Shown one piece after another: positions 3,656 through 64,000 of a stretch of DNA of 64,000 nucleotides. A program made the position numbers and the translations under genes. Numbering within the stretch: position 1 is the first letter of the stretch; the number at the start of each line of letters is the position of its first letter. Under the pieces are notes generated by a model. That model saw nothing but the letters and a program-made list of their open reading frames with translations, was not told the origin of the DNA and made no database searches. The stretch is from positions 13,590-77,589 of the IMG/VR virus record IMGVR_UViG_3300036828_000771; one strand, written 5' to 3'. This DNA is from a virus.

Positions 3656-3658
3656 GCC

Positions 3659-4738: not shown

Positions 4739-4752
4739 CGAGGCTCTGACCC

Positions 4753-5916: not shown

Positions 5917-5929
5917 GCGGGAGCGCGCC

Positions 5930-6238: not shown

Positions 6239-6241
6239 ACC

Positions 6242-10560: not shown

Positions 10561-10569
10561 GGTCAACGC

Positions 10570-11867: not shown

Positions 11868-12194
11868 CTAGGCACCGGGCACGACCTTGATGTCGGCGTG
11901 CGCACCACGCAGATCGGGCAGCCGGAACTCGCCGGGGCGATACGCATCGGCAGGGCCGGGTAGGCTGAGCAGCCGGCGCAGCCATTGCCTGAACGGCGTC
12001 TCGGGCCACAGCGTGTAGCGCAGGCCGATGACCTCGAACAGTTGCGGGTAGTCTTCGCGTCGCACCACCCGGCCGTCGAACACGATCCAGCCTTCAGGCA
12101 GTGGCGAGCCCTCGATAATGGGCATGATCATGCCGATGGGCTGCCCGGGGTCGCTGGCGTTGCCTGCCGGCGTCAAGGTGATGACTGGTTCCAT
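11868..12194 (-). CDS. Stand-alone phage tail-collar domain protein
   Basis: PIGMIM...PEGWIVFDGRVVRREDYPQLFEVIG...FRLPDLRG matches the collars of the fibre genes. Confidence 0.75.
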   Translation of the reverse strand: MEPVITLTPAGNASDPGQPIGMIMPIIEGSPLPEGWIVFDGRVVRREDYPQLFEVIGLRYTLWPETPFRQWLRRLLSLPGPADAYRPGEFRLPDLRGAHADIKVVPGA

Positions 12195-47816: not shown

Positions 47817-48281
47817 ATGGCTCAGACCAGCGTTGTCCCGCTGCCCAAGCCTCGACCCGGTCCACCGAAAGGCGTCCGCTACGGCGGCAGGCAGAAAGGC
47901 ACACCGAACAAGCGCACACCCGAGATGGTGCTGCTCGCGCGGCAGTACGGACCAGAGGTGCTCGCCAAGTTCATCAACCTGCTGCGCAAAAGCGACGACG
48001 AGGACATTGTCCTAAGAGCAGGGCAGGAGATTCTCAACCGAGGCTTCGGCCGACCTCCAACCGCTGTTGCTTTGACCGGCCCACAAGGCGAGCCGCTCGA
48101 CTTCACGAGGCTCGATGATGGACAACTCCAACGGCTTCTCGCCCACCTCGAACAGTTTGTCCTTGGAACGGGCGAGGAGAGTCATCCCATACTTGAAGGC
48201 CGAGCTACAGAAGCGCGAACGATTGGCGAGGGAACGGCAGGACCTCGCGAACCGACTGGAGGAGATTCGCGAGAGGTGTGA
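47817..48281 (+). CDS. terS: Terminase small subunit
   Basis: GGRQKGTPNKRT, EILNRGFGRP, LTGPQGEPL; upstream of terL. Confidence 0.75.
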   Translation: MAQTSVVPLPKPRPGPPKGVRYGGRQKGTPNKRTPEMVLLARQYGPEVLAKFINLLRKSDDEDIVLRAGQEILNRGFGRPPTAVALTGPQGEPLDFTRLDDGQLQRLLAHLEQFVLGTGEESHPILEGRATEARTIGEGTAGPREPTGGDSREV

Positions 48282-49752
48282 GAACTTCGTCGGCTTCATC
48301 AAGGAAGCGTGGAACAAGCTCGAACCGACCACCAACTACAAGCCTTCGTTCCACCACGACGCCATCGGCGATCACCTGCACGCCGTCAATCTCGGCCAGA
48401 TACAGCGCCTCGTCATCAACCAGCCACCCGGCACGATGAAGTCGCTCACCGTCTCCGTGCTGTTGCAGGCATGGGAATGGGGACCGCGCAAAGCACCCGG
48501 CTTACGCTACCTCACTACCTCGTATCGCGAAGACTGGGCGCGGCGAGACTCGCGCAAGAGCCGCGATCTCATCCAGAGCGAATGGTATCGCACGCTCTAC
48601 CCAGAGATCGTGCTGATCCGCGACGGCGAGACCGACTTCGAGAACACCTTCCTCGGCACCCGCAAAGCGGTGCCCTTCAAGTCCCTCACCGCCGGGCGCG
48701 GCAATCGTGTCGTGGTCGACGATCCTCACTCCACCGAACAGGCTGAGTCGGATGCTGACCGCGAAGTAGCGACTCGTGTCTTTCGTGAATCGGTGACTAG
48801 TCGACTCAACGATCCCGAAAAGGACTGCATCATCATCTGCATGCACCGACTGCATCCAGACGATGTGTGCGGGGTCATCGAACGGCTCGGCCTGCCCTAC
48901 ACCAAGCTCGTGCTGCCCATGGAGTACAGCCGCAGCCTCGAAGTGCGCACGCCATGGTTCAAGGACCCGCGCACCAAGGAGAACGAGCTTCTCTGCCCCA
49001 ACCGCATCAACCGCGAGACCGTCGAGCAGAACAAGATCGAACTCGGCGACCACGCCTACGCCACCCAGTACCAGCAGCAGGCCAAGGCCCGCGAGGGCAG
49101 TTTCTTCTTCAACCCCGAGCACTTCCTCGTCGAGGTCACGCGCGAGGACGGCTCGAAGTTCTTCGCGCCGGCAGCAACGCCCACGATCTGCGATTCGGTG
49201 TTCGCCGTGATCGACACCGCGAGCAAGGTCGGCAAGGCGCGCGACGGCACAGGCTGCGGCTGGTACGCCTACACCAAGTATCCCGAGGAGCAACTGCGGC
49301 TCTTGGACTGGGACCTCATCCAGATCGAGGCGGCGGTGCTGGAGCACTGGCTGCCCGGCGTGCTGGAGCGCTGCGAGGAACTGGCCGCGCTCACCCACGC
49401 GCGCTACGGCCACACCGGCGCGTGGATCGAGGACAAGGACTCGGGCATCGTGCTGTTGCAGCAGGCAGCCAATCGCGACCTGCTCGCTCAGCCGATTGAG
49501 ACCAAGCTCACCGGCATGGGCAAGGATGCCCGGGCGCTGTACTGCTCGGGCGATATCTACAAGGGTAAATTCAAAGTGTGTCAGGAGGCTTACGACAAGA
49601 CGACCAGCTATCATGGTCGCACGCGCAATCACTTCTGGTGGCAGGCCACCAACTTCCGCATCGGCCACGGCACGCCGACCGACGAAGACGAAATGTTCGA
49701 CGTTTTGTGCTATGGAGCCGCCATTGCATTCGGGAACCCAGATCAACTCTGA
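48115..49752 (+). CDS. terL: Terminase large subunit (start uncertain, possibly TTG near 48163)
   Basis: NQPPGTMKS, VVDDPH, MHRLH, QYQQ, VIDTASK, IEDKDSG and DEMFD motifs. Confidence 0.92.
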   Translation: MMDNSNGFSPTSNSLSLERARRVIPYLKAELQKRERLARERQDLANRLEEIRERCENFVGFIKEAWNKLEPTTNYKPSFHHDAIGDHLHAVNLGQIQRLVINQPPGTMKSLTVSVLLQAWEWGPRKAPGLRYLTTSYREDWARRDSRKSRDLIQSEWYRTLYPEIVLIRDGETDFENTFLGTRKAVPFKSLTAGRGNRVVVDDPHSTEQAESDADREVATRVFRESVTSRLNDPEKDCIIICMHRLHPDDVCGVIERLGLPYTKLVLPMEYSRSLEVRTPWFKDPRTKENELLCPNRINRETVEQNKIELGDHAYATQYQQQAKAREGSFFFNPEHFLVEVTREDGSKFFAPAATPTICDSVFAVIDTASKVGKARDGTGCGWYAYTKYPEEQLRLLDWDLIQIEAAVLEHWLPGVLERCEELAALTHARYGHTGAWIEDKDSGIVLLQQAANRDLLAQPIETKLTGMGKDARALYCSGDIYKGKFKVCQEAYDKTTSYHGRTRNHFWWQATNFRIGHGTPTDEDEMFDVLCYGAAIAFGNPDQL

Positions 49753-50176
49753 TCTGCCGACTGCCGGGCGGGGCGAATCATTCCATGGACTACCGGGACG
49801 TGCTGGCGGCGATTGCCATCGTCGTGGTCTTGGTTATGCTCATCGTGTCGGTGAAGTTGATCTTCGAGGATGATGGGAACGGGAAGACATGAACCCAGCC
49901 AACGAGCGCGGCACGGTCGAGCAGGTGATGGCCTTTGCGAATAGGCTGCGTCCGCCGCAGGCTGGTGTCCATGTCCTAAATTGCTGGCATGATGGCGGTG
50001 ATCCGCACGACCTCGCCTACATGCTCGACGGCCTGATGTATCATCAATGGATTGAGCGGCATGGATTACGACAGTGACCTACTAGCCGGCATCATCTTCA
50101 TCCTGCTCTGTCTGGGCGTCGTGCTGGCTCTCCCTCTGGCCGACGACGAGAAGGATGATGAGAACGGCCCAGCGTC

Positions 50177-50434
50177 GTGGTGAACACCGAGGACGGCAAG
50201 CCGCTCGACTGCGAGACGCAGGGCGTCAAGACCATCGTGGCGCTCGACGAGAAGGGCGATGAGATCGGCCGCTGGCTGGTGGCCGCGAACGAGTTCCGCA
50301 TCTTCCTCGGCAGCGAGTGCAAGGCTTTCACGCAGCACAACGAGGGCGCGGTCCAACTGACGGTGCGCCACATGCCGCCGGTCAGCGCGCATACAGCCTC
50401 GCTGCTGGCGGCAGAGGAATCGATCAAGCACTGA
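50177..50434 (+). CDS. Hypothetical protein
   Basis: Good codon usage; between terL and portal. Confidence 0.5.
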   Translation: MVNTEDGKPLDCETQGVKTIVALDEKGDEIGRWLVAANEFRIFLGSECKAFTQHNEGAVQLTVRHMPPVSAHTASLLAAEESIKH

Positions 50435-50444
50435 GGAGCGAGCC

Positions 50445-50633
50445 ATGCCAGACCCCAAGCCCACCGCCAAGCCCGCCGCACAGCCCAAGCGGCGCTATGA
50501 GCCCATCAAGGACTATCGCACGCTGCCGCGCCATCGGATGGAGTTCGGTCGCGAGATCAGTGCGACCAACTACTGGAAGGACAAGATGCCCGAGACCAGT
50601 TCGATCAACCCTGAGCGGGTGCCGCGCCGGTGA
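50445..50633 (+). CDS. Hypothetical protein
   Basis: RBS GAGGAG. Confidence 0.5.
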   Translation: MPDPKPTAKPAAQPKRRYEPIKDYRTLPRHRMEFGREISATNYWKDKMPETSSINPERVPRR

Positions 50634-51772
50634 CGCCTCCCTACAAGCTGGTCGACCAAGCGACCGGCGAGGAAGTGTTCACCGACATGGACACCGCGCC
50701 CGGCCAGTTCATCGAAGTGTGGAGCGGACCGACGCCGTCGAATCCCGACAGTCGCATCAGTCCCGGTGCGCTCGAACGGCCCGGTGGCGAGACGCCACCT
50801 CAGCCCATCCCACCCGACCCCGGCCCCGATCCGATTCCTCCAACCCCCGGAGACAACGGCATGGACAGCGTCACCAATGAGACCCAACTGCGCGATGCGT
50901 TGCAGACCTACGCCAACGAGTCGCGCGTCGGCTCGCTGGGCAACAAGACGCCGATCACCATGACCCAACCTATCGTCATCAAACAGTTGAGCACGGACGG
51001 CTTCCCGTGGGGCGTCAACGCCAACTTCCTGCGCGTGCTGTGGAAGGGCGATGGCGGGCGCGACATGATCACCTACCAAGGAGTCGACGGCATCGGAAAC
51101 CGCTGCCTCTACGTCGAGAAGCTGTGCATGGATGGCAACGGCTGGGGCGCAGCGCCGGCCGGCTCGTGCCTCAAGCTCTATGCGCCAGACGGCGACCCGG
51201 GTTCGATCTACAAGTTCACGCTCAGGGACATCTTCACCGGCTACGCCACGCATGGCGTCACGTTGTCCGGGGCAGTGTTCGAGGGCCTGATGGAGAACAT
51301 CCACGCCGAGAACCACATCGGCGATGGCATCTTCATGGAGCACCTCGGGCTCGACGGCATGAGCCCGTGGAGCATCGTCTCGAACATCATGATCGTGCAC
51401 CCGAACTCTAGCCGCAACTTCGGCGCGGGCATGCGGCAGGTCTACAGCGTCAACAGCATCATGGGCAGCTACGTGCTCAACGCCGCAGGCGGAATCGTTG
51501 CGCCCGATGGCCTGCGCTCCGTGCTGGCCAGCAACGGCGAGAACACCGGCGAGCAACTGTTCGTGCTCGGCTCCAACGGCTACGGCTCGGTGGTCGAAGG
51601 CTGCGAGGCCTCGACCGATGCCAATACGCGGTGCCGCAAGTACGAGAACGGCCAGTGGGTCGATGTCGGCAAGCCGCTGCTCTACGGCATGAACGATGTC
51701 GGCGCGCACGAGGAAGGCAGCCACATCAGCTACTACGGCGACGGCACGCAGAACCCGCGCTGGATGAAGTAG
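50630..51772 (+). CDS. Right-handed beta-helix (pectin-lyase-like) protein
   Basis: Pro-rich linker then repeats such as LCMDGN, HGVTL, ENHIGDGIF, NFGAGM and NAAGGI. Confidence 0.6.
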   Translation: MTPPYKLVDQATGEEVFTDMDTAPGQFIEVWSGPTPSNPDSRISPGALERPGGETPPQPIPPDPGPDPIPPTPGDNGMDSVTNETQLRDALQTYANESRVGSLGNKTPITMTQPIVIKQLSTDGFPWGVNANFLRVLWKGDGGRDMITYQGVDGIGNRCLYVEKLCMDGNGWGAAPAGSCLKLYAPDGDPGSIYKFTLRDIFTGYATHGVTLSGAVFEGLMENIHAENHIGDGIFMEHLGLDGMSPWSIVSNIMIVHPNSSRNFGAGMRQVYSVNSIMGSYVLNAAGGIVAPDGLRSVLASNGENTGEQLFVLGSNGYGSVVEGCEASTDANTRCRKYENGQWVDVGKPLLYGMNDVGAHEEGSHISYYGDGTQNPRWMK

Positions 51773-51800
51773 GAACGACCACGCGAAGCACGCAACGGTC

Positions 51801-51844
51801 GGGGTAGGGGGCGAACCGCTCGCGTCAGAGCGCCCGCCTACCCC
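51801..51844. other. Stem-loop after the beta-helix gene
   Basis: GGGGTAGG...CCTACCCC arms with an inner CGCTC/GAGCG stem. Confidence 0.5.
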
Positions 51845-52056
51845 ATGGAGGGCGTCATGCATGAGCGCTCGATCTCACCCACTTGGGGATTCACGTTCTA
51901 CGCGCACCGCTCAGTCGTCGAGCAGGGCGTTGCCATGGTCGAGGAAACCATGCGCGACGCTGCGCCGGGCACTGACCTGAGCGGTGTCGACCCGGTCGCG
52001 GTGACGCTGCATGCGCAGGCGCACGCGCTGTGGACGGCAGACATCGCGGGGACGGC

Positions 52057-52317
52057 ATGACGAAGCCTGCTTTCCGCCTTGCCATGCGGAGCGAAGGCGA
52101 GTGGTGGGTCGCCTCGTTGGCCGCGATTGGCACGATGGAGGGCGCAAAGGAACTGTCGCGCATGCGCGTGACACTGGCGACAGACGAGACGGTCAAACAG
52201 ATGTTCATCGACTTCAACACGAAGGTGATGGCGCGCATCATCGAGCGCAGCGGCTCGAAGGTCGAGTATTGGGATGTCCACCAAGCGCCTGAACACGAGC
52301 GCAACGGGACAGGCTAA
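52057..52317 (+). CDS. Hypothetical protein
   Basis: RLAMRSEGEWW...APEHER. Confidence 0.6.
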   Translation: MTKPAFRLAMRSEGEWWVASLAAIGTMEGAKELSRMRVTLATDETVKQMFIDFNTKVMARIIERSGSKVEYWDVHQAPEHERNGTG

Positions 52318-52320
52318 GCC

Positions 52321-53937
52321 ATGGCGACACCGACGACCGTCATCATCAACTCGTCGGCGATGGGCTCGGCTTTGTCGTCGATGCTGACGACGAACGACGA
52401 CATCCAGCCGGGGAGTTCGCCGGGCTACGAGCTTTGCAAGACGATCTACCAGTACCATCCGCTGGGCGCGAAGCTGGTCGAGCGGCCCATCGAGATCGCG
52501 CAGAGCCAAGAGCGCGAGATCAGCGTGCCGGACTCGCCCGAGTCGCGCGTGGTCGAGGCGTTCAAGAACGAGCAGACGCGGCTCGGTGTGAACAACCACA
52601 TCAGGAACGTGATGCGGCTGGCGCGGGTCTACGGCGTGGCATCGCTCGGCGTGGTCGAGGACGGCAAGAAGTTCGCCGATCCGCTCGACTTTGAGAATCT
52701 GTTCAAGTCGCAGATCACCTTCAACGTCTACGATCCGCTGAACACGGCGGGCTCGCTGGTGCTGCATCAGGACCCGCTGGCCATCGACTTCCAGCATGTC
52801 ATGCAGATCGCGGTGAACGGCCAGCCGTTCCATCGCAGCCGGTCCATCGTGGTGATGAACGAGGAGCCGATCTACATCAGCTACACCAGTTCGGCGTTCG
52901 GCTTCGTCGGCCGCAGCGTCTACCAGCGCTCGCTGTTCCCGCTGAAGTCGTTCCTGCAATGCGTGATCACCGACGATCTGGTGGCGCGCAAGGTCGGCGT
53001 GCTGGTGGCGAAGATCAAGCAGCCCGGCTCGATCATCAACAACGCGATGATCAAGCTGTTCGGCCAGAAGCGCGCGGTGGTGAAGGAGGCGGAGACCGGC
53101 GGCGTGATCTCGATCTCGCCCGAGGAAGACATCGCCTCGCTGAACTTCCAGAACGCGGACGGCCCTTACGAGGTGGCGCGCAAGAACATCATGGAGAACA
53201 TCGCCAGTGCGGCGGGCATGCCGGCGAAGCTCTTGACCGAGGAGACATTCGCCGAGGGCTTCGGTGAAGGCACCGAGGACGCCAAGGCCATCGCGCGCTA
53301 CATCGACAGCGTGCGGACCTCGATGCAGCCGCTGTACGACTTCTTCGACCGGATCGTGATGTACCGGGCGTGGAATCCGAACTTCTACAAGATCATCCAG
53401 AGCCAGTACCCGGAGTACAAAACCATCCCGTATCAGCAGGCGTTCTATCGGTGGAAGAACAGCTTCTCGTGCAAGTGGCCGTCGCTGCTGACCGAGCCCG
53501 ATTCGGAACTGGTGAAGGTCGACGAGGTGCGGCTGCGCGCGGTGATGGCGTGGGTGCAGTTGATGATGCCGATAGCCGATCCCGACAACAAGGCGCGGGT
53601 CATCGAATGGGCGGTCGACAACTTCAACGCGCTCAAGTTCCTGTTCGATACGCCGCTGGTGATGGACTACGAGGAGCTTGCGAACTACGAGCCACCGCAG
53701 CCGGCGATGGGCATGCAGCCGCCCGGGCAGAAGCCCGGGCAGCCGGGCCAGCAACCGGGGCAGGGCGGGCAGAAGCAGAACATGATGGGAGGCATGGGCG
53801 GCGGCAACTTTGCGACGCTGCCCAAGAGCCACGCCAACGATGAGGCTGTGGCGGAGTTCACCAAGGCGGTCTCGCGCATGCTGGAGTCGAAGGGCCAGCG
53901 TCGCCTGAAACTGATCGAGAGCAAGCGCGAGAAGTAG
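52321..53937 (+). CDS. Portal protein (DUF1073-type)
   Basis: HPLGAKL, ARVYG, FHRSR, GRSVYQR, IASAAGMPAKLL and GTED motifs; position after terL. Confidence 0.88.
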   Translation: MATPTTVIINSSAMGSALSSMLTTNDDIQPGSSPGYELCKTIYQYHPLGAKLVERPIEIAQSQEREISVPDSPESRVVEAFKNEQTRLGVNNHIRNVMRLARVYGVASLGVVEDGKKFADPLDFENLFKSQITFNVYDPLNTAGSLVLHQDPLAIDFQHVMQIAVNGQPFHRSRSIVVMNEEPIYISYTSSAFGFVGRSVYQRSLFPLKSFLQCVITDDLVARKVGVLVAKIKQPGSIINNAMIKLFGQKRAVVKEAETGGVISISPEEDIASLNFQNADGPYEVARKNIMENIASAAGMPAKLLTEETFAEGFGEGTEDAKAIARYIDSVRTSMQPLYDFFDRIVMYRAWNPNFYKIIQSQYPEYKTIPYQQAFYRWKNSFSCKWPSLLTEPDSELVKVDEVRLRAVMAWVQLMMPIADPDNKARVIEWAVDNFNALKFLFDTPLVMDYEELANYEPPQPAMGMQPPGQKPGQPGQQPGQGGQKQNMMGGMGGGNFATLPKSHANDEAVAEFTKAVSRMLESKGQRRLKLIESKREK

Positions 53938-54128
53938 GGCATGCCGACGATGGTGTTCGCTGACCTCTACAACGGCTGCTCGGCGGCGTGGGTGCACGAC
54001 AGCTATCGCTGGCGCGGCAAGCTGTTGCTGGGCAGGTACGCGCACTGGTGCGACAACTGGGACGGCCTGCCGATTGACGAGACCTGCTTGGAATGGCCCT
54101 GCGGCTGTAGCCTCGCGGACGAAGACTG

Positions 54129-54968
54129 ATGGCGTCCGCATCTGCCGAGTTCATGGAGGTGCTGACCGAAGCCATCGCCGACTTCACCGAGCATGGCTTC
54201 GACAATATCGAGCGGCTGGTGATGTGGCAGGAGAAGCTGCGCGATGCGGCGCTGCGCTCGACGACACCGCCCAAGGTGATGGTCGACCTGCTGCGGGCGG
54301 CGCTGCGCAAGGTCTACGAGAAGCTGGTCGAGCAGGGGCGCGTCGTGAAGATGCACCCGGGGATTGGCCAGTTCACGCTGTCGAAGCTGAAGCCCGAACT
54401 GCACGCTGTGCTCGACCGTCACATCCATGCGTCGGCCGACCTGATCAAGCTCAATCGCGAGACGAGGATTGAACAGACATTACAGCGGTTCAGCGGCTGG
54501 GCATCATCGATTCCGGCGGGTGGCACGGATCAGGCGGATAAGCGCAAGACGGTGAAGGAGATCAAGCGCGGCATTGCTGGATTACAGTTCGAGGAGCGGC
54601 GGGTGCTGATCGATCAGGGCCACAAGCTCAACGCGGCGATCTCGCGCACCATCGCGGAAGGTGGTGGGGCGCTGGGCGGCTACTGGTTCAGCCACTGGCG
54701 TCAGCCGGGCTACGACTATCGTGAGGACCACAAGGAGCGCGACGGCGTGTTCTACGTGCAGCGCGACAACTGGGCGATGGAGCAGGGGCTGATGAAGCTG
54801 GGGGGACATGAGTACACCGACGAGATCACGCAGCCCGGCGAAGAGGTCTACTGCCGCTGCCTGTACCGCTACGCCTACAGCCTGCGCGACATTCCCGAGG
54901 AGTGCATGACGGCGCTGGGCACCAAGAAGCTGGCCGAGGTCCGCGCCTACATCGCGGGCGAACTTTAA
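54129..54968 (+). CDS. MuF/gp7-like head morphogenesis protein
   Basis: IDQGHKL, W.SHWR, REDHKERDG and QPGEEVYCRC motifs. Confidence 0.88.
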   Translation: MASASAEFMEVLTEAIADFTEHGFDNIERLVMWQEKLRDAALRSTTPPKVMVDLLRAALRKVYEKLVEQGRVVKMHPGIGQFTLSKLKPELHAVLDRHIHASADLIKLNRETRIEQTLQRFSGWASSIPAGGTDQADKRKTVKEIKRGIAGLQFEERRVLIDQGHKLNAAISRTIAEGGGALGGYWFSHWRQPGYDYREDHKERDGVFYVQRDNWAMEQGLMKLGGHEYTDEITQPGEEVYCRCLYRYAYSLRDIPEECMTALGTKKLAEVRAYIAGEL

Positions 54969-54983
54969 CCGCAGGAGACGATC

Positions 54984-55247
54984 ATGAGCGACACAGGACC
55001 GACCAAGACGCTGGCCGAGTGGATGGACTACGAGAAGACCGAGGCGGCGAAGCCAGCGACGGACGAACCCGAGGCAACGGCACCCAGCGAACCGATCAGC
55101 GACGAGCAGGCCGCGAAGTTCATGCATCACTACGGGGTGGGCGCGGAGCAGAAGATGGATCGCGCGACGCTCGACGCGCGCATGAAGGCGCTCAAAGACC
55201 TGCCCGACCCGGAGCCGCCACAGCCAGCCGCCGCGCCATCGGCCTAG
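54984..55247 (+). CDS. Hypothetical head-region protein
   Basis: RBS AGGAG. Confidence 0.6.
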   Translation: MSDTGPTKTLAEWMDYEKTEAAKPATDEPEATAPSEPISDEQAAKFMHHYGVGAEQKMDRATLDARMKALKDLPDPEPPQPAAAPSA

Positions 55248-55249
55248 CC

Positions 55250-55483
55250 ATGGCGATCTTCGCAGGCGCGGCCACGCCGGTGGTGATCATGGCGGTGGGC
55301 ACGACACCGCTGGCCGGCAAGGCGTCGCCCTATGCGGTGGTCAGCGGCAGGCCGATCAAGCCCGGCAAGCCGATGCCGATTGTCGTGGTGGCGGGCACCG
55401 TGCCGCTGCTGGCGGGCAATCAGATTCCGGTGACGGCGGTGGCCGGGCCGCCGAAGCCCGGCAAGCCGACGCCTGTTCGCTAG
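55250..55483 (+). CDS. Small internally duplicated protein
   Basis: Two copies of P(V/I)V..GT.PL..G...KPGKP.P. Confidence 0.55.
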   Translation: MAIFAGAATPVVIMAVGTTPLAGKASPYAVVSGRPIKPGKPMPIVVVAGTVPLLAGNQIPVTAVAGPPKPGKPTPVR

Positions 55484-55493
55484 GGAGGATGCC

Positions 55494-55805
55494 ATGCCGC
55501 TGACCGACAAGGGCGAGAAGATCATGTCCTCAATGAAGGGCACCTACCCGAGCGACAAGAAGGCGAAGGAGGTTTTCTATGCCTCGAAGAACGCCGGCAA
55601 GATCAGCGGTGTCGACGAGGGCGACATGGGCGTCGATGCGGGCGAGGTGCAGCACGCCTTCGACGAGACCGTGGACAAGACGCACAAGCTGGCGGCGCGG
55701 GTGAGCGCGATTGAAGCGCATGATGATCGGTCGGCCGAGGAGCACGCGAAGGCGGCGGAGTTCCACGAGGAAGAAGCCGAGCGGGGCGATGACTGCGCCA
55801 CCTGA
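55494..55805 (+). CDS. Small head-region protein carrying the heptad tag
   Basis: MPLTDKGEKIM...VFYASKNAGKI; RBS GGAGG. Confidence 0.7.
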   Translation: MPLTDKGEKIMSSMKGTYPSDKKAKEVFYASKNAGKISGVDEGDMGVDAGEVQHAFDETVDKTHKLAARVSAIEAHDDRSAEEHAKAAEFHEEEAERGDDCAT

Positions 55806-58800
55806 TCTTGAGGTTGCGGCCGGTCTGTTCGAGGTGTTCGACCGTCGTCTGGATGGACTGCTCGCGCGCCTCGACTTCGATCCGAGCGAGCCACGCGACG
55901 AGTCAGGGAAATGGACGGACGGCGGTGGCGGTGCTGCTGCCCTAAAAACCGGCATGAAGCCTGCCGAGCCCGAGGCGTTCGTCAAAGCGCGCGACAGATC
56001 GACACGCCAGCAGTTCCTGTCGGCTCACCCGGCGTCTGAACTTGCCGACCACACGCTGTTCACGAACGAAGAAGGAACGGTCGGAATATCGGTCGACCCC
56101 AAGGGCGACATCCAGAACGTGTTCAACAATGGCGGCCCTAAAGGTGGGGCATCAAAGGCTATGGTGGCGGCGATTGCGGCAGGCGGTCGCACGCTCGATT
56201 GCTACGACGGCTTCCTGCCAGCCTATTACAGCCAGTTCGGCTTTGCCGAAGACCAGCGCATGAAGTTCAACCGGGACTTCGCGCCGCCGGGCTGGGACTT
56301 CGCGAAGGCCGGCACCCCTGACATTGTATTCATGTCATGGCGTGGCTATATGGGGGATGGAGGTGCGCAAGGTGCCCTAAATAGTGCCGCATCGCACAGG
56401 AAGCCGCCGCCTCCAGAAAGGAGCGAGGTCTATGGCGACGATTGGGATGCAGCCAAAGAGCGCAGCCGAACAGCCGCAGCCGCAGCGGACTCCGGAAGAA
56501 CTCGCTCTGATAGCGTGGCTGGAATCGGGCGGGCGGAAGCTGACGGAGCAGGAGATCAACGTGGCTCTGGAGCAGGCGCGGGCGCTGGGCGAAATCTAGG
56601 GCTTCGCGCCGACGACGATCCGACCGACAGCGACCTGACGGTTGCTGCGGATGCCATCAGTGGGATGATGGCCCGGCTGGACGCATGGGACGAGAGCAGC
56701 CACCCGCGCGGCCAGCCGGACAATAAGGGCCAGTTCGTCACCAAGGGCGGTGAGACGGCTGGCGGGCTGACCATCCAGAAGACCGGGCAAGGCATGTACG
56801 ACGCGCGGGTCAACGGCGACTACGCCGGGCATGCGCACGTCGCCGAGGGCCATCCGTTCCTGTCGTCGATGCACGTCCATGAGGATCATGCCGGCAAGGG
56901 CATCGGCGCGGCGCTGCACGATCACGTCGAGAAGGAGCTTGGTCGGCCGCTGGTGCCGAATCCGCTGCACATGACCGACGAGCACAAGGAGATGTGGCAG
57001 AAGCGGCTGGCCGAGATGCCGCCCACGGATGCGGCGGCGCGCCTGACCGAGGCACGCAAGATCGGCAGCGACAAGTTCGGGCGCAAGCAGACCGACATCG
57101 ACAAGCTGCACAACAACCTGCGCGCCGTGGTCGGCGGCATGCAGCATCCCGGCGAAGGTTATAGCGCCCAGAGCTACATCGATGCGCTGGGCCGCATCCA
57201 CACCAGCAATGTGCAAGACGCGGCGCGCGCGCTGTACGAGAAGAAGTCGGTGGTGCTGAGCCAGCCTCGGCAGGTGTCGACGCTGATTGAGCACCTTGGC
57301 AAGGTGGCGGCCGAGTTCATCCGGCTGGGCGGCAAGGCCCCGACATTCGATCTGTGCAAGGTGAGCGTCGAGGGCACCAACCTGTTCTGCGCCGAGTCGA
57401 AGGGCATCCCGCGCGTGCAGATGCCGCAACTGGACAAGGAAGCGACCAAGCGGTTCCGCAAGTACCTCGAAGCCAAGGGCTTCAAGATCACGCGCGAGAA
57501 GGAGAAGGCGAGCTACCTGCGCGCGACGCAGGACGAACTGAACGGCGCGAAGGTGGCGGCGAACGCAGCGTCCTACGACAAGGGCAAGGAGCCGCGCCGC
57601 ATCATCGTGAGCCGCGACAACTACATCCTCGACGGCCATCACAAGTGGGCCGCGATGCTGGGCATCGACTCGCGTGACGGCAAGTTCGGCGACAAGGACA
57701 TGAAGGTCTCGCGGGTCGACGCATCGATCACGGAGTTGCTGGCGGAGACGCAGGCGTTCGGGGCGACCACCGGGGCGAGCGTCGAATCGGGAACACCCGG
57801 CGGCGCTCAGCCAGCAGCGCGTACCGATGAAGGGCTGACGTTCGACATCCCCGACTTGCGCGGGCGGGTTCGCCCGCTCCAGTTCATGCGCACCGACGCC
57901 TACAATCCGAACGAGGCGCGCATCCCCAAGGGCGAGCCCGGTGGCGGGCAGTGGACATCAGGCGGCGGCGGGCTGGGCTTCACCAAGAACGAGAGCAAGA
58001 GCGGCCCGTCGTACACCATCTGGAACCATGATGAGGGCAATCTGTCGGTCCAGACCGCCACGGGAAAATGGCGTTGGAGCGGGAAAGAGGGCGGCGACAT
58101 CGAGACGACGTATGGCGACGACGAGGAGTCGCTGAACAAGTTCATCAACGCGCACAAGGACGCGCTGAAGGTCAAGCCGCACGACATCAATATGGAAGTC
58201 GCCGATGTCGGCGGCGACGAATGGAACAAGGCGACCGGCAAGCGGATGGAGTTCGAGTACGTGAAGGCGGCGCATCACCTCGACAAGCTGGTGCGCGACA
58301 AGGTCGCGTCGGGCGAGGTCGACCCCGCGCCCGCACCCGAGAAGGACGAGGACGAGGAGCCGCCTGAGAACGAGTACGGCTATTCGTACCCGCCCGATGA
58401 CTGGGACATGCTGTCGGGCGAGCATCAGTCGGACGCAGAGAAGCAGTGGATCGAGAACAACAAGAGCGACTACGTCGAGAGCGAGGAGCAGAACTGGCAC
58501 GAGAACGGCGACGCCAAGGCGCAGGCCGCGAGCCAGTTGGCCGACGACATCACCAACGGCAACCCGGGCGGTGAGTTCTTCGAGGACGCGACCGAGGAAT
58601 GGGTCAAGGAGTGGAACGAGGAGCACCCAGACGATCCGGTGCGCTACACGCCGCACGACCTGTTCATGTCGACGGTCGTCGAGGACGGCAGCAAGTACAA
58701 GGACTGGGGCGCGGGCAGCAGCAACGCCGGCCAGCCGGACATCTCGTTCACCGACGATATGCTCGACAAGCCGCTGGGCTACGAGCCGCCGGACCCGGCG

Positions 58801-61800
58801 CAGATGAACCTGCCCGGTGTGCCCGAGCACATCCCGCCGAAGCCCGGCCAGTTTTTCACCGACGATCAGAAGGCATCGCTGACCGCGCATTTGGAGAAGG
58901 CGTTCGACGATGAGGCCGACAAGCAGGAATACAATCTCGAAGCGCCTGACTACATCAGCGAGCAGGCCGAAGAACAGATGGGCGAAGTCTGGGATCAGAT
59001 GGACGACAAGCAGAAGTTCAAGATCGCAAAGGACGTGCTCACCAGCGGCATCTTCGAGGAGCCCGGCCCGGCGCAGCAGGACGAGGAGGTCGACGAGGAT
59101 TCGGACGCGATCATCGCCGAGCCGCCGAAGCACTACGACCCGCTGAACACCGGGCACGACATGACCGACTACCGGCGCACGCAGGCGCTCGCGCGCACGG
59201 TGTCCATCGACCGGGGTGTCGAGCTTCTGATGGAGCGCGGCGTGCTCAAGACGGGCAAGCCGCACACATGGCAGGACACGGCGAAGATACTGAAGGACGG
59301 CGAGCGCTTCACACCACAGCAGATCGCCGATGCAGTGGGCCGGAATGCAAACCCGGAGTTGGCTGAGCAACAGGGCGAGCATGGCTTGGCCATGCAGTTG
59401 CGGCTGACCAAGGAATTGGCGAACACATCTGTGGCGCTGGGTCTTGCGATGACGCCCTACGCTGTGGCGCTTCAGCTAGACGGGCCGGGAAAGACCAAGC
59501 TGTCGCGCGACTTCGCGGCGAAGGTGGTGAACGCGATGAAGCCCAACATCGAAGGCGAAGGCGAGAACACCTACCTGAACGGCGTCGGCTTCGACGAGGA
59601 GAAGCTGAAGGAGTCGCTGGGCAGGCCCGGCGCAAGGGAATACTTCGACGCGGTGAAAGACGACATCGGCGCGAAGCTGAACGCCTACCTCAATGATCGG
59701 CACCATGAACTGGCGGCAAAGGGCGCGCAGTACAATTTAGGGCGCGAGCACACCATCGGCGATACGCTTGCCAAGTTTACCGAGGCGCAGGCTAAGTGGG
59801 ATGCGGAGTCGCTGGGCAAGCTGATCGATCAGGGGACACCCAGCACCTCGGTGTCGCCGGACCTGCAAGAGGCGGCGCGTTACGCCTACACGCTGTACTC
59901 GTCAGGACCCGTCGAGGACATCGCCTACAAGGCCAAGGGCTACCCGAACCCGAAGCCGATGCCGACCGAAGCGAAGCGCGCCTCGGCCATGTACGCCGGG
60001 AAGCTGGCGATGGCGCTGCGCATGAGGCGCGGGGTGGACGACAAGCCGACCGAAGTGACGTTCGATCAGCCGACCCTCGACAAGGAGATGCACGATCCGT
60101 GGGAGCGCGACTACTTCCAGCAGAACAAGGAGAAGCTGGTGCAGGCGGCCTCGCAGTACCTGTACGACCGGCACAATGCGCTGGCCGAAGACACCGGCAA
60201 GGGTGTCGCCGATCTGCGCGCGGCGGTGAAGCGGCGCGACCGTGAGATGTGGGAAGCGTGGAAGGGAAGCTCGACCTCGACGCTGGGCAAGCTGATCCAG
60301 ATCGGCTCGGCGGATGAACTGGGCGGCCGGGTGCGCATGCCCCAGAGAGTCAAGCTCGACTTCGACGAGGACAAGGTCGAGATGCCGAACTTCGGCGAGG
60401 TGCTGGCCGCCAATGCGGTGCCAGCCGCGACGCTCCCCGGCGGCCATGTGGTGAACGTCAAGGCAGCGCTGACCGAGCAACTGAGCAACAACGTCATGGA
60501 CCTGCCGGTCGCGGATCGCATGACGTTGAACGACAAGTTTGTGAAACTCTCGAAAGAGCAGGGCCATCCATACGAGAAGCTGGACTGGTCTTTGACGACG
60601 GCGGAGTTGGTTGGCCACGCCAAGCTCAGCTACAACCCGGAGAAGGGACCGACGACCGGCGGGCTCGTGATCAAGGTGAACGAGGACGACCTGTCGCCGC
60701 CCGCGAAGTTCCTGTGGCAGTCGCGACGGCCTGAGATCAAGACAGCGATGCTGAAGGGCATGCTGTCCGAGGCGAACGCGGTGCATAGGGATCGCGTCAC
60801 CGTGGCGAAGAGAGCGGCGATCCTGAAGGCTGGCGGCTACAAGCCGCTGCCGCTGTCGAGCACGCTGGACGCCGCCAAGAGCGGAGTCGGTTCGGCCACG
60901 TCGCGCATCCGCAACCAGTTGGATGATGTTCTGAGGGGGATACCGGAGATCAAGCCGGACTACGCCCACGATATATCGACGAAGCTCGGCGATCCGTCAT
61001 CGTGGTCGACGGCGGTGAAGATCGGCGACGACGACAAGTTCCATTTCGATGGCGACAAGGTGATCGCCAACTTCTTGGCGAGGAACCCGAACTACAACCC
61101 CGAGACCAATCCGGCCACCGGCCCTGTGCGCGAGGCAATGACGACCTCGCTGAACGCGCTGAAGGAGCGCAAGGCGGAGATCGAGAAGGCACTCCAGACG
61201 GGGATGCAGGTCTACCAGTCCGTGCGCGAGGACAACGCCAAGTCGGCGGCGGAGCAGAAGTACCTCGATGCGAATCAGTACGCATGGGAGCCGAAGGAGG
61301 AACTGATCGCGACGGCCGACAAGACCCTGAAGGACATCGGCGGCTACGCGGGCCTGAAGGCACTGCTGCGGGCGAAGTGGGAGACCACGCAGTGGCTGCT
61401 CGACAAGGCGGGCATCCACACAGTGAAGGTCTACCGGGGCATGGAGATTCCATCGCTCGACAATACCCGCGAGAAGGCGGTGATCGGCAAGAGCGGGCAT
61501 GACTACAAGAGCCTGCCCGAGGCCAACATCATTCGGCCCGGCGCGCACTCGACCTCGCTCGACGCCAAGGTCTCGAACGGCTGGCGCGGCAACAACCGCA
61601 TCGTGCTGCGCATGGAAGTGCCGCGCACGGCAGTGCTCTCGATCCCGGCCTATGGCATCAACGTCCACGGCGAACACGAACTGGTGGTGACGGGCACGGC
61701 GTGGAAGAACTGGGACGCATGGCGCACGACCGCGCCGACGTTCGATCAGATTCCGATAGCGTCGCATGTGCACAAGCCCGAGGGCGTACCAGCGACGCCA

Positions 61801-61815
61801 ACCGAGAGTCAGTGA
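55789..61815 (+). CDS. Large polyvalent protein: GNAT-like, GNAT, ParB-like, acidic region and C-terminal R-S-E ADP-ribosyltransferase
   Basis: LDCYDGFLPAYYSQFGF; VHEDHAGKGIGAAL; ATQ...IIVSRDNYILDGHHKWAA; VYRG...STS...GEHELVV; downstream of MuF. Confidence 0.8.
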   Translation: MTAPPDLEVAAGLFEVFDRRLDGLLARLDFDPSEPRDESGKWTDGGGGAAALKTGMKPAEPEAFVKARDRSTRQQFLSAHPASELADHTLFTNEEGTVGISVDPKGDIQNVFNNGGPKGGASKAMVAAIAAGGRTLDCYDGFLPAYYSQFGFAEDQRMKFNRDFAPPGWDFAKAGTPDIVFMSWRGYMGDGGAQGALNSAASHRKPPPPERSEVYGDDWDAAKERSRTAAAAADSGRTRSDSVAGIGRAEADGAGDQRGSGAGAGAGRNLGLRADDDPTDSDLTVAADAISGMMARLDAWDESSHPRGQPDNKGQFVTKGGETAGGLTIQKTGQGMYDARVNGDYAGHAHVAEGHPFLSSMHVHEDHAGKGIGAALHDHVEKELGRPLVPNPLHMTDEHKEMWQKRLAEMPPTDAAARLTEARKIGSDKFGRKQTDIDKLHNNLRAVVGGMQHPGEGYSAQSYIDALGRIHTSNVQDAARALYEKKSVVLSQPRQVSTLIEHLGKVAAEFIRLGGKAPTFDLCKVSVEGTNLFCAESKGIPRVQMPQLDKEATKRFRKYLEAKGFKITREKEKASYLRATQDELNGAKVAANAASYDKGKEPRRIIVSRDNYILDGHHKWAAMLGIDSRDGKFGDKDMKVSRVDASITELLAETQAFGATTGASVESGTPGGAQPAARTDEGLTFDIPDLRGRVRPLQFMRTDAYNPNEARIPKGEPGGGQWTSGGGGLGFTKNESKSGPSYTIWNHDEGNLSVQTATGKWRWSGKEGGDIETTYGDDEESLNKFINAHKDALKVKPHDINMEVADVGGDEWNKATGKRMEFEYVKAAHHLDKLVRDKVASGEVDPAPAPEKDEDEEPPENEYGYSYPPDDWDMLSGEHQSDAEKQWIENNKSDYVESEEQNWHENGDAKAQAASQLADDITNGNPGGEFFEDATEEWVKEWNEEHPDDPVRYTPHDLFMSTVVEDGSKYKDWGAGSSNAGQPDISFTDDMLDKPLGYEPPDPAQMNLPGVPEHIPPKPGQFFTDDQKASLTAHLEKAFDDEADKQEYNLEAPDYISEQAEEQMGEVWDQMDDKQKFKIAKDVLTSGIFEEPGPAQQDEEVDEDSDAIIAEPPKHYDPLNTGHDMTDYRRTQALARTVSIDRGVELLMERGVLKTGKPHTWQDTAKILKDGERFTPQQIADAVGRNANPELAEQQGEHGLAMQLRLTKELANTSVALGLAMTPYAVALQLDGPGKTKLSRDFAAKVVNAMKPNIEGEGENTYLNGVGFDEEKLKESLGRPGAREYFDAVKDDIGAKLNAYLNDRHHELAAKGAQYNLGREHTIGDTLAKFTEAQAKWDAESLGKLIDQGTPSTSVSPDLQEAARYAYTLYSSGPVEDIAYKAKGYPNPKPMPTEAKRASAMYAGKLAMALRMRRGVDDKPTEVTFDQPTLDKEMHDPWERDYFQQNKEKLVQAASQYLYDRHNALAEDTGKGVADLRAAVKRRDREMWEAWKGSSTSTLGKLIQIGSADELGGRVRMPQRVKLDFDEDKVEMPNFGEVLAANAVPAATLPGGHVVNVKAALTEQLSNNVMDLPVADRMTLNDKFVKLSKEQGHPYEKLDWSLTTAELVGHAKLSYNPEKGPTTGGLVIKVNEDDLSPPAKFLWQSRRPEIKTAMLKGMLSEANAVHRDRVTVAKRAAILKAGGYKPLPLSSTLDAAKSGVGSATSRIRNQLDDVLRGIPEIKPDYAHDISTKLGDPSSWSTAVKIGDDDKFHFDGDKVIANFLARNPNYNPETNPATGPVREAMTTSLNALKERKAEIEKALQTGMQVYQSVREDNAKSAAEQKYLDANQYAWEPKEELIATADKTLKDIGGYAGLKALLRAKWETTQWLLDKAGIHTVKVYRGMEIPSLDNTREKAVIGKSGHDYKSLPEANIIRPGAHSTSLDAKVSNGWRGNNRIVLRMEVPRTAVLSIPAYGINVHGEHELVVTGTAWKNWDAWRTTAPTFDQIPIASHVHKPEGVPATPTESQ
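56432..56599 (+). CDS. Nested out-of-frame small gene inside the polyprotein linker
   Basis: RBS AAAGGAG/GAGG, ATG, GC3-rich codons and an amphipathic helical product. Confidence 0.55.
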   Translation: MATIGMQPKSAAEQPQPQRTPEELALIAWLESGGRKLTEQEINVALEQARALGEI

Positions 61816-61816
61816 C

Positions 61817-62026
61817 ATGGCTGACAACGACATCGACATCGCGCTGGCCGACACCATCGCGGGACGACACTGGCTGCATCCGGCGGTGCGCCATCACGGC
61901 AACCCGCGCATGGAGGCGATCCGCGCGAAGTACCGGGCGCTGCATCAGGCTGGCAAGATGATGGGCAAGATCGGCGACAAGACCGACAAGCTGACGAAGC
62001 GGCTCGACACGCTGGATGACAAATGA
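61817..62026 (+). CDS. Small head-region protein carrying the heptad tag
   Basis: Ends MGKIGDKTDKLTKRLDTLDDK; ATGA overlap with the next gene. Confidence 0.6.
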   Translation: MADNDIDIALADTIAGRHWLHPAVRHHGNPRMEAIRAKYRALHQAGKMMGKIGDKTDKLTKRLDTLDDK

Positions 62027-63960
62027 TTCGCGCAGCCGGCGTCATGATCGTGAGCGCTGGCGGCAAGGTGCTGTTTCTGAAGCGGTCGAAGTCGGGCGAT
62101 CAGGCTGGCAAATGGTGCTTTCCGGGCGGCGGCATCGAAGGCAACGAAACGCCAAAGGAAGCGGCGATCAGAGAACTGGACGAGGAGGCAGGAGTCCGGG
62201 CGGAGCCTGAGCATCTGACGTTCTGGACGCGGCGGGTGAAGGACGACGTGGACTTCACGACGTTCATCGTGCGCAACGTGGTCGAGTTCGAGCCCTACCT
62301 CAACGCCGAGCACACCCAGTACCTGTGGGCCGAGCCGCACCGGGCACCGCGCCCGCTCCATCCCGGCTGCGAGGTCTGCCTCGACAAGCTGGAGAGTGAC
62401 GAGCTTTGGGTGGCGCGGCAGATGCGCGACGGCGAGCTTCACGGCCCGCAGCAGTACGAGAATCTGTGGCTGTTCGCGCTGCGCATCACCGGCACCGGGC
62501 AGGCGTTCCGGCACAAGTGGGACGAGTACGTCATCCGTGATCCGGCGCTCTACCTGAACGAGGACTTTCTCGCGCGCTGCGCCGGCCTGCCGGTAATCCT
62601 CGAACATCCCGAGACCTCGGTGCTGAACACCGAAGAGTTCAAGGACCGCACGGTTGGTACGATCATGCTGCCCTATATCAAGGGCGACGAAGTCTGGGGC
62701 ATCGCGAAGATTTACGATGCCGATGCCGTCAACATCATGCTGAACGAGCAGTTGTCCACGTCACCGGCGGTGGTGTGGAGAGACCCAGACGTGAACTCCG
62801 AGCAGGAACTTGAGAACGGACTGACATCCCTGCGCGAAGGAAAGCCGACTTTGGTGGATCACCTCGCCATCTGCAAGGTCGGCGTCTGGGACAAAGGCGG
62901 GAAACCCGAGGGCATAGACTTAGGAGGCCTAATCATGCCTGATAATGCGAAGCCAAAAGTCGCCGCCGATGATGCAGACAAGGGCGGCATGGGAAGATTG
63001 CTGAAGGGCCTCGAAGCGCTCAACAGCAAGATCGATTCCATCTTCACGCGCGTCGACTCCATCGAGGCCAAGCAGGCCAAGAAGAAGGCGCGCGCCGATG
63101 ATGACGATGAAGGGGGCGGCGAGGACAAGCCGAAGCCGCCGCTGCCGACGCCCGGTGCTGAAGGCGAGCCGTCTCCTGTCGCGGCCGACAAGAAGCGGAA
63201 GGACGACGATCAAGCCGTCCCGCCGAAGGCGAAGGCTGCGCCAGTGCCACCGATGCCACCGCCCAAGCTCGATGACGATGATGACGACGAGGGCGAGGAC
63301 AAGAAGATGCCGCCGGAGTTCCTGAAGAACATCAAGAAGGACGACGACGACGATGAAGGCGACGACAAGGAGGAGAAGGAAGAGGAGGAGAAGGAAGTCG
63401 CCGACGACGCCGGTGGGAAGAAGGTCGCATGGGGCAAGGGCAAGTCGCGCGCCGATGGCACGGTGCGCGTCAAGACCACCGACCTGAACGCCCTGCGGCG
63501 CGAACTCGCCGAGGTCCGGTCTCGCCTGCCCAAGGATCGCGGCGACGAGGACGCGGCTGCCATGGCCGAGGATCAGGCGCGCTGCGATTCGGTGGCGCTG
63601 ATGTTCGGTGCGTCGGCCCCTCGGCCGCTCGCCGGTGAGGCGCGCGCTGCCTACCGGCTGCGCATGTTGGAGCCGTACAAGAAGTACAGCGCCAACTGGA
63701 AGGACGTGCCGCTTGAAGTGGTGGCCGTCGATGAGGCCGCATTGGGCGTGGTCGAGAAGCAGATTTACGACACTGCTCGACTGGCCGCGCGCGATCCCGC
63801 CAGCGTCCCGGTGGGCACGCTGCGGGCTGTTCAAACCCGCACGCCCACGGGTCATCTTGAGACCCGCTTCATGGGCAGCCCGAGCGTCTGGCTGAACCGT
63901 GGCACCCCCAACCGGCGCTACGTCAAAGCCATCAACCTGATGAAGGATAACCGGCCATGA
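62023..63960 (+). CDS. Nudix hydrolase - DUF2213 prohead protease - scaffold fusion
   Basis: Intact Nudix box GGIEGNETPKEAAIRELDEEAGV; PVILEHP, LSTSP, DHLAIC..GVWD; acidic, charged scaffold tail. Confidence 0.85.
   Translation: MIRAAGVMIVSAGGKVLFLKRSKSGDQAGKWCFPGGGIEGNETPKEAAIRELDEEAGVRAEPEHLTFWTRRVKDDVDFTTFIVRNVVEFEPYLNAEHTQYLWAEPHRAPRPLHPGCEVCLDKLESDELWVARQMRDGELHGPQQYENLWLFALRITGTGQAFRHKWDEYVIRDPALYLNEDFLARCAGLPVILEHPETSVLNTEEFKDRTVGTIMLPYIKGDEVWGIAKIYDADAVNIMLNEQLSTSPAVVWRDPDVNSEQELENGLTSLREGKPTLVDHLAICKVGVWDKGGKPEGIDLGGLIMPDNAKPKVAADDADKGGMGRLLKGLEALNSKIDSIFTRVDSIEAKQAKKKARADDDDEGGGEDKPKPPLPTPGAEGEPSPVAADKKRKDDDQAVPPKAKAAPVPPMPPPKLDDDDDDEGEDKKMPPEFLKNIKKDDDDDEGDDKEEKEEEEKEVADDAGGKKVAWGKGKSRADGTVRVKTTDLNALRRELAEVRSRLPKDRGDEDAAAMAEDQARCDSVALMFGASAPRPLAGEARAAYRLRMLEPYKKYSANWKDVPLEVVAVDEAALGVVEKQIYDTARLAARDPASVPVGTLRAVQTRTPTGHLETRFMGSPSVWLNRGTPNRRYVKAINLMKDNRP
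62935..63960 (+). CDS. Probable in-frame nested scaffold protein
   Basis: Strong internal RBS TAGGAGG upstream of in-frame ATG (MPDNAKPK). Confidence 0.6.
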   Translation: MPDNAKPKVAADDADKGGMGRLLKGLEALNSKIDSIFTRVDSIEAKQAKKKARADDDDEGGGEDKPKPPLPTPGAEGEPSPVAADKKRKDDDQAVPPKAKAAPVPPMPPPKLDDDDDDEGEDKKMPPEFLKNIKKDDDDDEGDDKEEKEEEEKEVADDAGGKKVAWGKGKSRADGTVRVKTTDLNALRRELAEVRSRLPKDRGDEDAAAMAEDQARCDSVALMFGASAPRPLAGEARAAYRLRMLEPYKKYSANWKDVPLEVVAVDEAALGVVEKQIYDTARLAARDPASVPVGTLRAVQTRTPTGHLETRFMGSPSVWLNRGTPNRRYVKAINLMKDNRP

Positions 63961-64000
63961 CGATCAGCATCTCTCCCCAGATCACCAAGACGGCGGCGGG
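63957..64000 (+). CDS. Start of next head gene (partial; decoration or capsid protein expected)
   Basis: ATGA overlap; MTISISPQITKTAA truncated by the window end. Confidence 0.45.
   Translation, partial: MTISISPQITKTAA

Follow-up and report, generated by a model that had tools for sequence, protein, structure and literature searches.

Within seconds of the start of infection, enzymes carried in phage heads disarm the host. How such proteins are chosen, loaded and released is known to us only for T4, P1 and a few giant phages. The internal proteins and Alt of T4 lose N-terminal peptides through trimming by gp21 (PMC9958956), and some of the Dar proteins of P1 are proteolytically processed before or during their incorporation into the head (PMC5512222). 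In the giant phages, as described in two reports (PMC10052503, PMC7411985), a T4-like prohead protease cuts many head-internal proteins at a phage-specific short consensus, and ejection follows. The MuF polymorphic toxins involve the MuF head protein of temperate phages (PMC12226406), and zincin-like metallopeptidase domains were proposed by Iyer, Burroughs, Anand, de Souza and Aravind in 2017 for the processing of polyvalent proteins (PMC5512222). Here we describe a gene for a polyvalent protein of 2,008 amino acids (aa), referred to as the giant, that lies among the head genes of a 64,000-nucleotide stretch of viral DNA (the window), which is the final 64 kb of the 77,589-bp IMG/VR virus record IMGVR_UViG_3300036828_000771, rated complete by CheckV.

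The giant belongs to the known polyvalent class, and what appears to be new is the grammar of its junctions, in which a lineage-specific site is followed by a widespread header tag; to this the window adds an Asp-type site together with a DUF2213 domain of prohead-protease fold. The explanation that we favor, and to which we assign a probability of about 0.55, is that each junction combines a head-protease site with a header tag retained on the module behind it, and that the giant is loaded, cut and injected.

Header tags in the giant and in other phage proteins

The giant is encoded in an open frame at 55711–61815 (+) and has its 2,008 aa when counted from the ATG at 55789, in agreement with the product of about 2,000 aa at 55789–61815 proposed in an earlier reading of the sequence (the original prediction). 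The elements that define its junctions are as follows.

55789–61815 (+): giant cargo (polyvalent) protein gene, 2,008 aa; letter-for-letter record P0002
55789–55875 (+): N-terminal leader, aa 1–29, ending in RRLD...ARLD; similar leaders in P0003, P0004 and L005
55876–55932 (+): header tag 1, FDPSEPRDESGKWT plus a Gly run, from motif and profile
56671–56682 (+): candidate protease site ARLD before tag 2, putatively cleaved
56683–56751 (+): header tag 2, AWDESSHPRGQPDNKGQFV plus TKGG, from motif and profile
57886–57897 (+): candidate protease site MRTD before tag 3, putatively cleaved
57898–57969 (+): header tag 3, AYNPNEARIPKGEPGGGQWT plus SGGG, from motif and profile

The three tags share a grammar composed of an aromatic residue followed by D/N, then (H/E/Q)-(P/A)-R, G-x-(W/F)-(T/V) and a Gly run, with (A/M)-R-x-D(-A) just before. 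The core of the first tag occupies aa 30–43 (nt 55876–55917) with LLARLD directly before it, that of the second aa 299–317 (nt 56683–56739) preceded by MMARLD(A), and that of the third aa 704–723 (nt 57898–57957) preceded by QFMRTD(A); a second ARTD is found upstream of tag 3, at aa 677–680. The original prediction had described three related motifs that each directly follow an R-x-D site and that divide the protein into three segments, and both descriptions hold: the motifs are where they were placed, each precedes a Gly-rich run, and the three head three modules. A loose regular expression applied to all six frames of the 64-kb window finds the three tags and only two further places, both in non-gene frames, and of the 1,064 stop-to-stop frames of the whole genome, only the open reading frame (ORF) of the giant is found by a profile that draws on 13 instances from other phages and on none from the window (full-sequence expectation value (E) 1e-16, with three stretches that score 25.0, 28.3 and 10.4 bits, compared to an E of 0.25 for the next frame). 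The tag repeat is thus real and specific to the giant. The leader ahead of the first tag is a candidate propeptide or targeting helix. The further proposal that the motif acts as a DNA-binding signal looks unlikely, since the tags are net acidic as read from their sequence.

The tag extends well beyond this phage. A 30-position profile made from 16 instances, taken from the window and from four related viral contigs, was searched against 1.84 billion cluster representatives and matches 582 of them at E≤1e-3 and 68 at E≤1e-10, with two to ten tag stretches in each of the 150 best matches listed; the figure of 582 is a floor, since proteins with a single copy cannot reach significance with so short a profile. 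Position statistics for the best 149 of the 582 proteins (506 tags, median three per protein) show that 51% of them have their first tag in the N-terminal 60 aa and 1.3% their last tag in the C-terminal 40 aa, and the spacing between tags has a median of 243 aa (5–95% range 114–619). From these terminal positions and the domain-sized spacing we conclude that the tag heads modules, the first one included, rather than trailing them, which favors a function connected with the beginning of each released module. A search of cultured phages with a 32-aa tag by tblastn yielded no match, and the combination of site and header at a junction is described in none of the literature that we searched, a search whose coverage excludes most subscription journals.

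The tagged proteins are varied in content. A Pfam census of 37 sampled tag proteins found ART-PolyVal (8), Phage_Mu_F (3), portal (2) and DUF2213 (2), as well as GNAT, DUF7178, NUDIX, Zeta toxin, InPase, Acb1, topoisomerase IB and others, a repertoire that is that of the phage-type polyvalent proteins (PMC5512222). The modules behind tags are a broad set of candidate injected counter-defense enzymes. We also note, in a sample covering P0033–P0181, tagged modules of Acb1 (active against the cyclic-oligonucleotide-based antiphage signaling system, CBASS), Zeta toxin, inorganic pyrophosphatase, topoisomerase IB, RadC, an HD domain and cysteine dioxygenase. Among homologues of the giant, P0006 has four tag copies following a lambda-type portal, P0013 has six, and P0011 has three following a PF06381 portal; the tag is conserved in phages with different portal families (PF06381 and PF05136). 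Elsewhere the tag opens separate genes, e.g. the L002 ORF at 10749–12128 and the L004 ORF at 7920–11069. L002 also has a variant tag at 9851–9946, 10770–10865 and 11496–11591, which reads (N/E)-(E/P)-(C/S)-H-D-P-x-x-G-E-F-(C/T) plus a Gly run, is without Arg, and has paired Cys in two of its three copies; its junctions are portal-ParB, module 1 and a C3-like ADP-ribosyltransferase (ART).

This distribution could also be explained if the tag were mainly an address label, serving in loading onto the scaffold core, in retention within the head or in threading through portal and tail at ejection, with cutting secondary, elsewhere or absent. The strictly module-heading position of the tag, its presence on otherwise unrelated enzymes and its place at the start of separate genes in L002 and L004 are all as expected of a label, and the closest analogue would be the capsid targeting sequence of T4, which is N-terminal on the internal proteins (PMC9958956). 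Against it, the tag is also found on modules already fused to portal or MuF, where a loading label would be redundant, and docking specific to the portal is disfavored by the conservation of the tag across different portal families; we regard a label with no obligatory cut as unlikely.

Returning to the combination of protease site and retained tag, a wider version of it is that the tag is a general, undescribed signal of capsid-carried effectors, which follows a lineage-specific head-protease site and marks modules for head retention or ejection; this we put forward tentatively, as somewhat more doubtful than its operation in the giant itself.

Module exchange at the tags and candidate protease sites

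The relatives exchange modules at the tags, a check that had been proposed along with the original prediction and that came out in its favor in P0003, L005, L004 and L002 and in the BLAST borders. The module order of the homologue P0003 is 2, 1, 3. The closest contig, L005, has a tag-GNAT/ParB module followed by a DPSEPRDESG-W tag with an ART-PolyVal module in place of module 1, then a further tagged module with a second ART-PolyVal, and then tag-module 3. L002 contains a portal-tag-ParB fusion followed by tag-module 1-tag-C3-like ART, and the second polyprotein of L004 (7920–11069) has a NUDIX module downstream of its module 1 homologue, with no NUDIX on the scaffold protein; because the L004 NUDIX sits in a tagged polyprotein and not on the scaffold, NUDIX would seem to be cargo with more than one possible mode of attachment. 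The borders of BLAST alignments of the relatives on the giant (query positions 29, 42, 43, 293, 321, 703 and 727) are tag edges. When 155 tag proteins were compared all against all by BLAST, 3,124 high-scoring segment pairs of at least 80 aa resulted, 21% of which start 10–30 aa before a tag end, compared to 5.3% for randomly placed pairs, and 18% of which end 10–30 aa after a tag start, compared to 4.3%. Borders of homology blocks are thus enriched about four-fold over chance at the tags, to be read as a strong trend and not as a P-value because the segment pairs are not independent. As a separate observation, the L005 polyprotein is split into two overlapping ORFs at 9860–9960, and the frame change, which lies in the G-rich run directly behind a tag, reflects a homopolymer sequencing error or else a real shift.

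The residues immediately ahead of the tags behave differently from the tags themselves. At positions −1 and −2 before the tag aromatic, agreement is 0.45 within a protein versus 0.14–0.18 between proteins, and it fades by −5. The pattern is R-x-D or A-A-D in the giant and its closest relatives, and V-x-K, or Phe, in other proteins; these residues fit a lineage-specific protease site. What stands out within the giant is the longer form [AM]R[LTMS]D, with four copies (at aa 26, 295, 677 and 700), three of which lie directly before a tag.

Because no match to Peptidase_S78, S77 or ClpP is present in the genome, the DUF2213 domain encoded by the next gene was examined as a candidate protease.

62023–63960 (+): 645-aa protein with NUDIX, DUF2213 and acidic scaffold-like parts, immediately ahead of the capsid gene across the contig ends
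62398–63012 (+): DUF2213 domain, predicted prohead protease with the T4 gp21/herpesvirus assemblin fold, aa 126–330 of the protein of this gene

In an alignment of 32 DUF2213 sequences H70 and the S-T-S-P motif (S120, S122) are invariant and D154-H155 is nearly so. The AlphaFold 2 model is confident (predicted local distance difference test (pLDDT) 87.3), and the Foldseek list contains herpesvirus proteases and T4 gp21, with probabilities up to 0.99 and E of 3e-3 and above. VIA-align places gp21 first (5jbl_A, Z 10.6, root-mean-square deviation (rmsd) 2.7, 130 of 165 residues), followed by herpesvirus proteases at Z 7.9 and below (Z 6–8). The DUF2213 domain as modeled has a T4 gp21-like prohead protease fold. 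The gene for the NUDIX-protease-scaffold protein lies directly before the capsid gene, which is the classical place for a head protease, and the order is the same in the cultured phage PdC23; the scaffold part contains two R-x-D-(S/T) sites that are also conserved in L005. Cleavage of the giant at its Asp sites is made more plausible by the gp21-like fold in the neighboring gene. T4 gp21 cuts after Glu in L/I-x-E, so that the acidic last residue of the candidate site would be in character, and self-processing by a zincin-like domain is unlikely since no HExxH motif was found in the giant. A predicted complex of a junction peptide with the DUF2213 domain scored 0.01, which weighs neither for nor against binding. 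We note that DUF2213 is still treated as of unknown function (PMC8770471), and that NUDIX+DUF2213 fusions form large viral clusters in Atlas.

Taken as a mechanism, the giant would be built into the procapsid and cut at its Asp sites by the gp21-like protease domain of the neighboring NUDIX-protease-scaffold protein. The tagged modules would remain in the head and enter the host together with the DNA, where they would acetylate, act on DNA and ADP-ribosylate host targets. Packaging, cutting, the exact position of the cut, ejection and the role of the tag are steps that we infer.

Several points weigh against this explanation. First, R-x-D alone is at chance frequency in the giant, with 10 occurrences compared to 8.6 expected. 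Secondly, duplication of junctions within a protein could also give the within-protein similarity of the pre-tag residues. Thirdly, the protease assignment comes from the modeled fold and the conserved residues, and the phage is known from an uncultured IMG/VR record alone. Finally, P0003 joins modules 2 and 1 without a tag, so that the tag is not obligatory at every joint, and gp47 of phi24B, a polyvalent protein of 2,811 aa, was detected in virions in a preprint that reports no processing.

Both phi24B gp47 and the unenriched R-x-D would suit a giant that is packaged without being cut, in which the tags and Gly runs are flexible, insulating joints that resemble one another and are hence points of recombination for the shuffling of modules. 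The coincidence of homology-block borders with tags is as this would have it, and so is the occurrence of one type of tag before different modules, DPSEPRDESG-W heading module 1 here and ART-PolyVal in L005. A linker is needless before a first module, however, and the presence of a tag within 60 aa of the N-terminus in 51% of the tag proteins, with almost none at the C-terminus, is at odds with such a role; the aromatic, P-R, G and W/F positions are likewise conserved, among phages that are very distant, more strictly than a linker would need, and the portal of P0006 with its roughly 2,000 aa of tagged modules would be hard to square with a working 12-mer portal unless these were cut. An uncut giant is in our judgment improbable.

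Module content and the head-gene setting

The modules behind the tags of the giant contain the following blocks.

55933–56658 (+): module 1, an enzyme-like domain, phrog_2563, aa ~49–290; an acetyltransferase-like label only in another phage's annotation
56752–57123 (+): module 2a, GNAT acetyltransferase domain, PF00583 at 24.4 bits versus a cut-off of 20.7, aa 335–384
57136–57813 (+): module 2b, putative ParB-like (DdrB-type) domain with DGHH, aa ~450–675, phrog_2859 at E 1.3e-25
58195–59247 (+): acidic block of module 3, aa 803–1153, with 25% D+E over aa 830–1160; conserved in all relatives
60217–60336 (+): WKGSSTS...GK.LQ..ELGGR block of module 3, which precedes the ART in relatives
61303–61767 (+): C-terminal R-S-E ADP-ribosyltransferase-like domain of module 3, with R1883, S1921, E1962 and E1964

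The original prediction described segment 1 as GNAT-like, segment 2 as a GNAT plus a ParB-like DGHH domain, and segment 3 as ending in an R-S-E ART, and these assignments fare unequally. Module 1 is not confirmed as a GNAT by Pfam, which gives no such match in the giant or in three homologues, by hhalign comparison with the module 2 GNAT, in which the profiles were shallow and the probability was 0.06, by PDB sequences, which yielded nothing useful, or by Atlas, where it falls in viral hypothetical clusters only, none of them named; the 'acetyltransferase' label is carried by a single match, gp77 of Streptomyces phage Conan. The GNAT of segment 2 stands, as its PF00583 match exceeds the Pfam cut-off; it is the sole Pfam match in the giant, and the homologue P0003 is likewise above the GNAT cut-off. 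For the ParB-like domain the DGHH motif, invariant in three aligned module 2b sequences, and the kinship with DarB-like and PLxRFG proteins stand; no Pfam ParBc match was found in the giant. By tblastn, module 2b is similar to giant virion proteins of several phages, F116-like ones among them, whose annotations read structural, PLxRFG, DarB-like or methyltransferase, and its profile against PDB sequences reaches serine kinases of the ParB/Srx fold at the motif only, with a weak E of ~1–2. A ParB-like identity of module 2b is plausible.

Module 3 is about 1,300 residues long, with three conserved blocks in the same order in all relatives (aa 803–1153, 1477–1516 and 1839–1993) that are separated by long lineage-specific stretches; no internal repeats were found within it by BLAST. 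The acidic block of about 350 aa matched no known family and lies upstream of a C-terminal ART in every relative. The ART motifs are where they had been predicted, with YRG at 61432, STS at 61549 and EHE at 61672, and across 21 aligned relatives conservation is 90–100% at the Y-R-G Arg, the S-T-S Ser and the two Glu residues of E-x-E. A Pfam DRAT match was obtained for four of these 21 relatives, the best with an E of 4.2e-6; the giant's own domain matches ADPrib_exo_Tox below the cut-off (E 0.039, 13.7 bits). The AlphaFold 2 model is moderate (pLDDT 68.5); its VIA-align matches are nearly all ART folds (best 4eyy_Q, Z 5.6, rmsd 3.1, 91 aa; every Z below 6), and its Foldseek matches are almost only ART folds, at low scores with E of at least 0.026. 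The motifs and their conservation support the C-terminus of the giant as an R-S-E ART-like enzyme.

The giant gene is located within a head-gene module, whose upstream members in the window are the following.

48115–49752 (+): terminase large subunit (TerL), phrog_38 at E 4.6e-40
52321–53937 (+): portal protein, PF06381 at E 6.8e-18, phrog_146 at E 1.8e-53
54129–54968 (+): MuF-like head morphogenesis protein, a gene of its own, 279 aa, phrog_324 at E 2.1e-24

Its reading as a polyvalent protein of the head module is borne out by TerL, portal and MuF-like genes on the 5′ side and by the protease-scaffold and capsid genes on the 3′ side. The chain contains at least two unrelated enzymatic or effector domains (GNAT, ART-like and the ParB-like block), the gene is beside virion and late genes, and relatives are fused to portal, as is characteristic of the class. 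The description of the giant as MuF-linked applies to the neighborhood, in which a MuF-like gene lies two ORFs upstream, and not to a fusion, as Pfam and PHROG scans of the 2,008-aa protein found no MuF domain. A search with the whole giant against PDB sequences gave nothing useful, an NCBIfam scan of it gave no match, and megablast of 12 kb against cultured phages gave none either.

Across the contig ends, the gene for the major capsid protein and those for tail sheath, tape measure and baseplate hub follow, and the source phage is contractile-tailed. Its capsid protein shares 53% identity with its counterparts in the cultured phages Pantoea PdC23, Klebsiella Chronis and Yersinia vB_YenM, which are of the Certevirus type. 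In PdC23 (1–7223, compared to 48115–64000 of the window) the order is TerL, portal, a 272-aa protein, a 553-aa 'NUDIX hydrolase', one gene, and capsid; the giant gene is absent from this head region, and the order in the cultured Certevirus-type phages is otherwise the same. Because head modules of the PdC23 type are without it, we interpret the giant as an accessory insertion between the MuF-like and protease-scaffold genes.

That cultured relatives such as PdC23 build heads without the giant gene leaves room for a giant that is no component of the virion at all, a late cytoplasmic multi-enzyme protein that merely happens to be encoded within the head operon. The fusion of homologous modules to portal proteins in relatives, the similarity of the ParB-like module to proteins annotated as structural or internal to the virion, and the position of the gene between the MuF-like and protease-scaffold genes all speak against this, and we consider it very unlikely indeed.

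Two further features of the region were seen. A 103-aa ORF at 55494–55805, just 5′ of the giant gene, begins with MPLTDKGEKIMSSMKGTYPSDKKAKEVFYASKNAGKISGV, and the L004 polyprotein begins with another short helical motif, ending in GHPQKQAEAIA; both starts look like recurrent small peptides of phage head regions. The C-terminal end of the portal (53700–53937) is a Pro/Gln/Gly-rich low-complexity tail (QPPGQKPGQPGQQPGQGGQKQNMMGGMGGG) followed by a basic helix.

Implications and comparison with known systems

A conserved tag would give a sequence handle on injected effectors in metagenomes, including GNATs, ARTs, NUDIX, Zeta toxin and the anti-CBASS Acb1. If the wider reading of the tag as a general signal is correct, a single short profile could catalog the enzymes that thousands of phages inject, the tag could be used for loading foreign proteins into capsids, and DUF2213 would be a previously unnamed family of prohead proteases that serves such systems.

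The phage-type polyvalent proteins (PMC5512222) resemble the giant in having several unrelated enzymatic domains per chain (GNAT, ART and DdrB-type ParB, the last putative in the giant), a virion late-gene neighborhood, relatives fused to portal or MuF, and a predicted delivery with the DNA. The giant differs from them in that its candidate protease is encoded by the neighboring gene, and a text search of PMC5512222 found no mention of the junction tag. The P1 Dar system (DarB, DdrB and DarA; PMC5512222), compared here by description only, has large proteins with a DdrB-type ParB domain, as is putative for the giant, and in P1 these are carried in the virion; the domain sets differ, and no header tag is reported for the Dar proteins. 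The ejection proteins of giant phages (SPN3US gp245; PMC10052503, PMC7411985) share the cutting by a head protease before ejection that is proposed here; there, many separate genes are involved, and no shared tag behind the site is described in the abstracts of these sources. The MuF polymorphic toxins (PMC12226406) likewise have effector domains associated with MuF and a modular swapping of C-terminal enzymes, whereas here the MuF-like protein is the product of a separate 279-aa gene and the effector chain has no MuF domain.

T4 head cargo (PMC9958956) has in common with this locus a protease of the gp21 fold beside the scaffold and capsid genes and a short N-terminal leader; an R-S-E ART as cargo, which is proposed here, and an acidic last residue at the cut would be further shared features. 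The differences are in the organization of the cargo: in T4 each cargo protein has its own gene and loses its leader, whereas here three modules lie in one chain, the predicted protease is fused to NUDIX and scaffold, the candidate site is R-x-D, and the conserved tag that follows the presumed cut would stay on the mature module.

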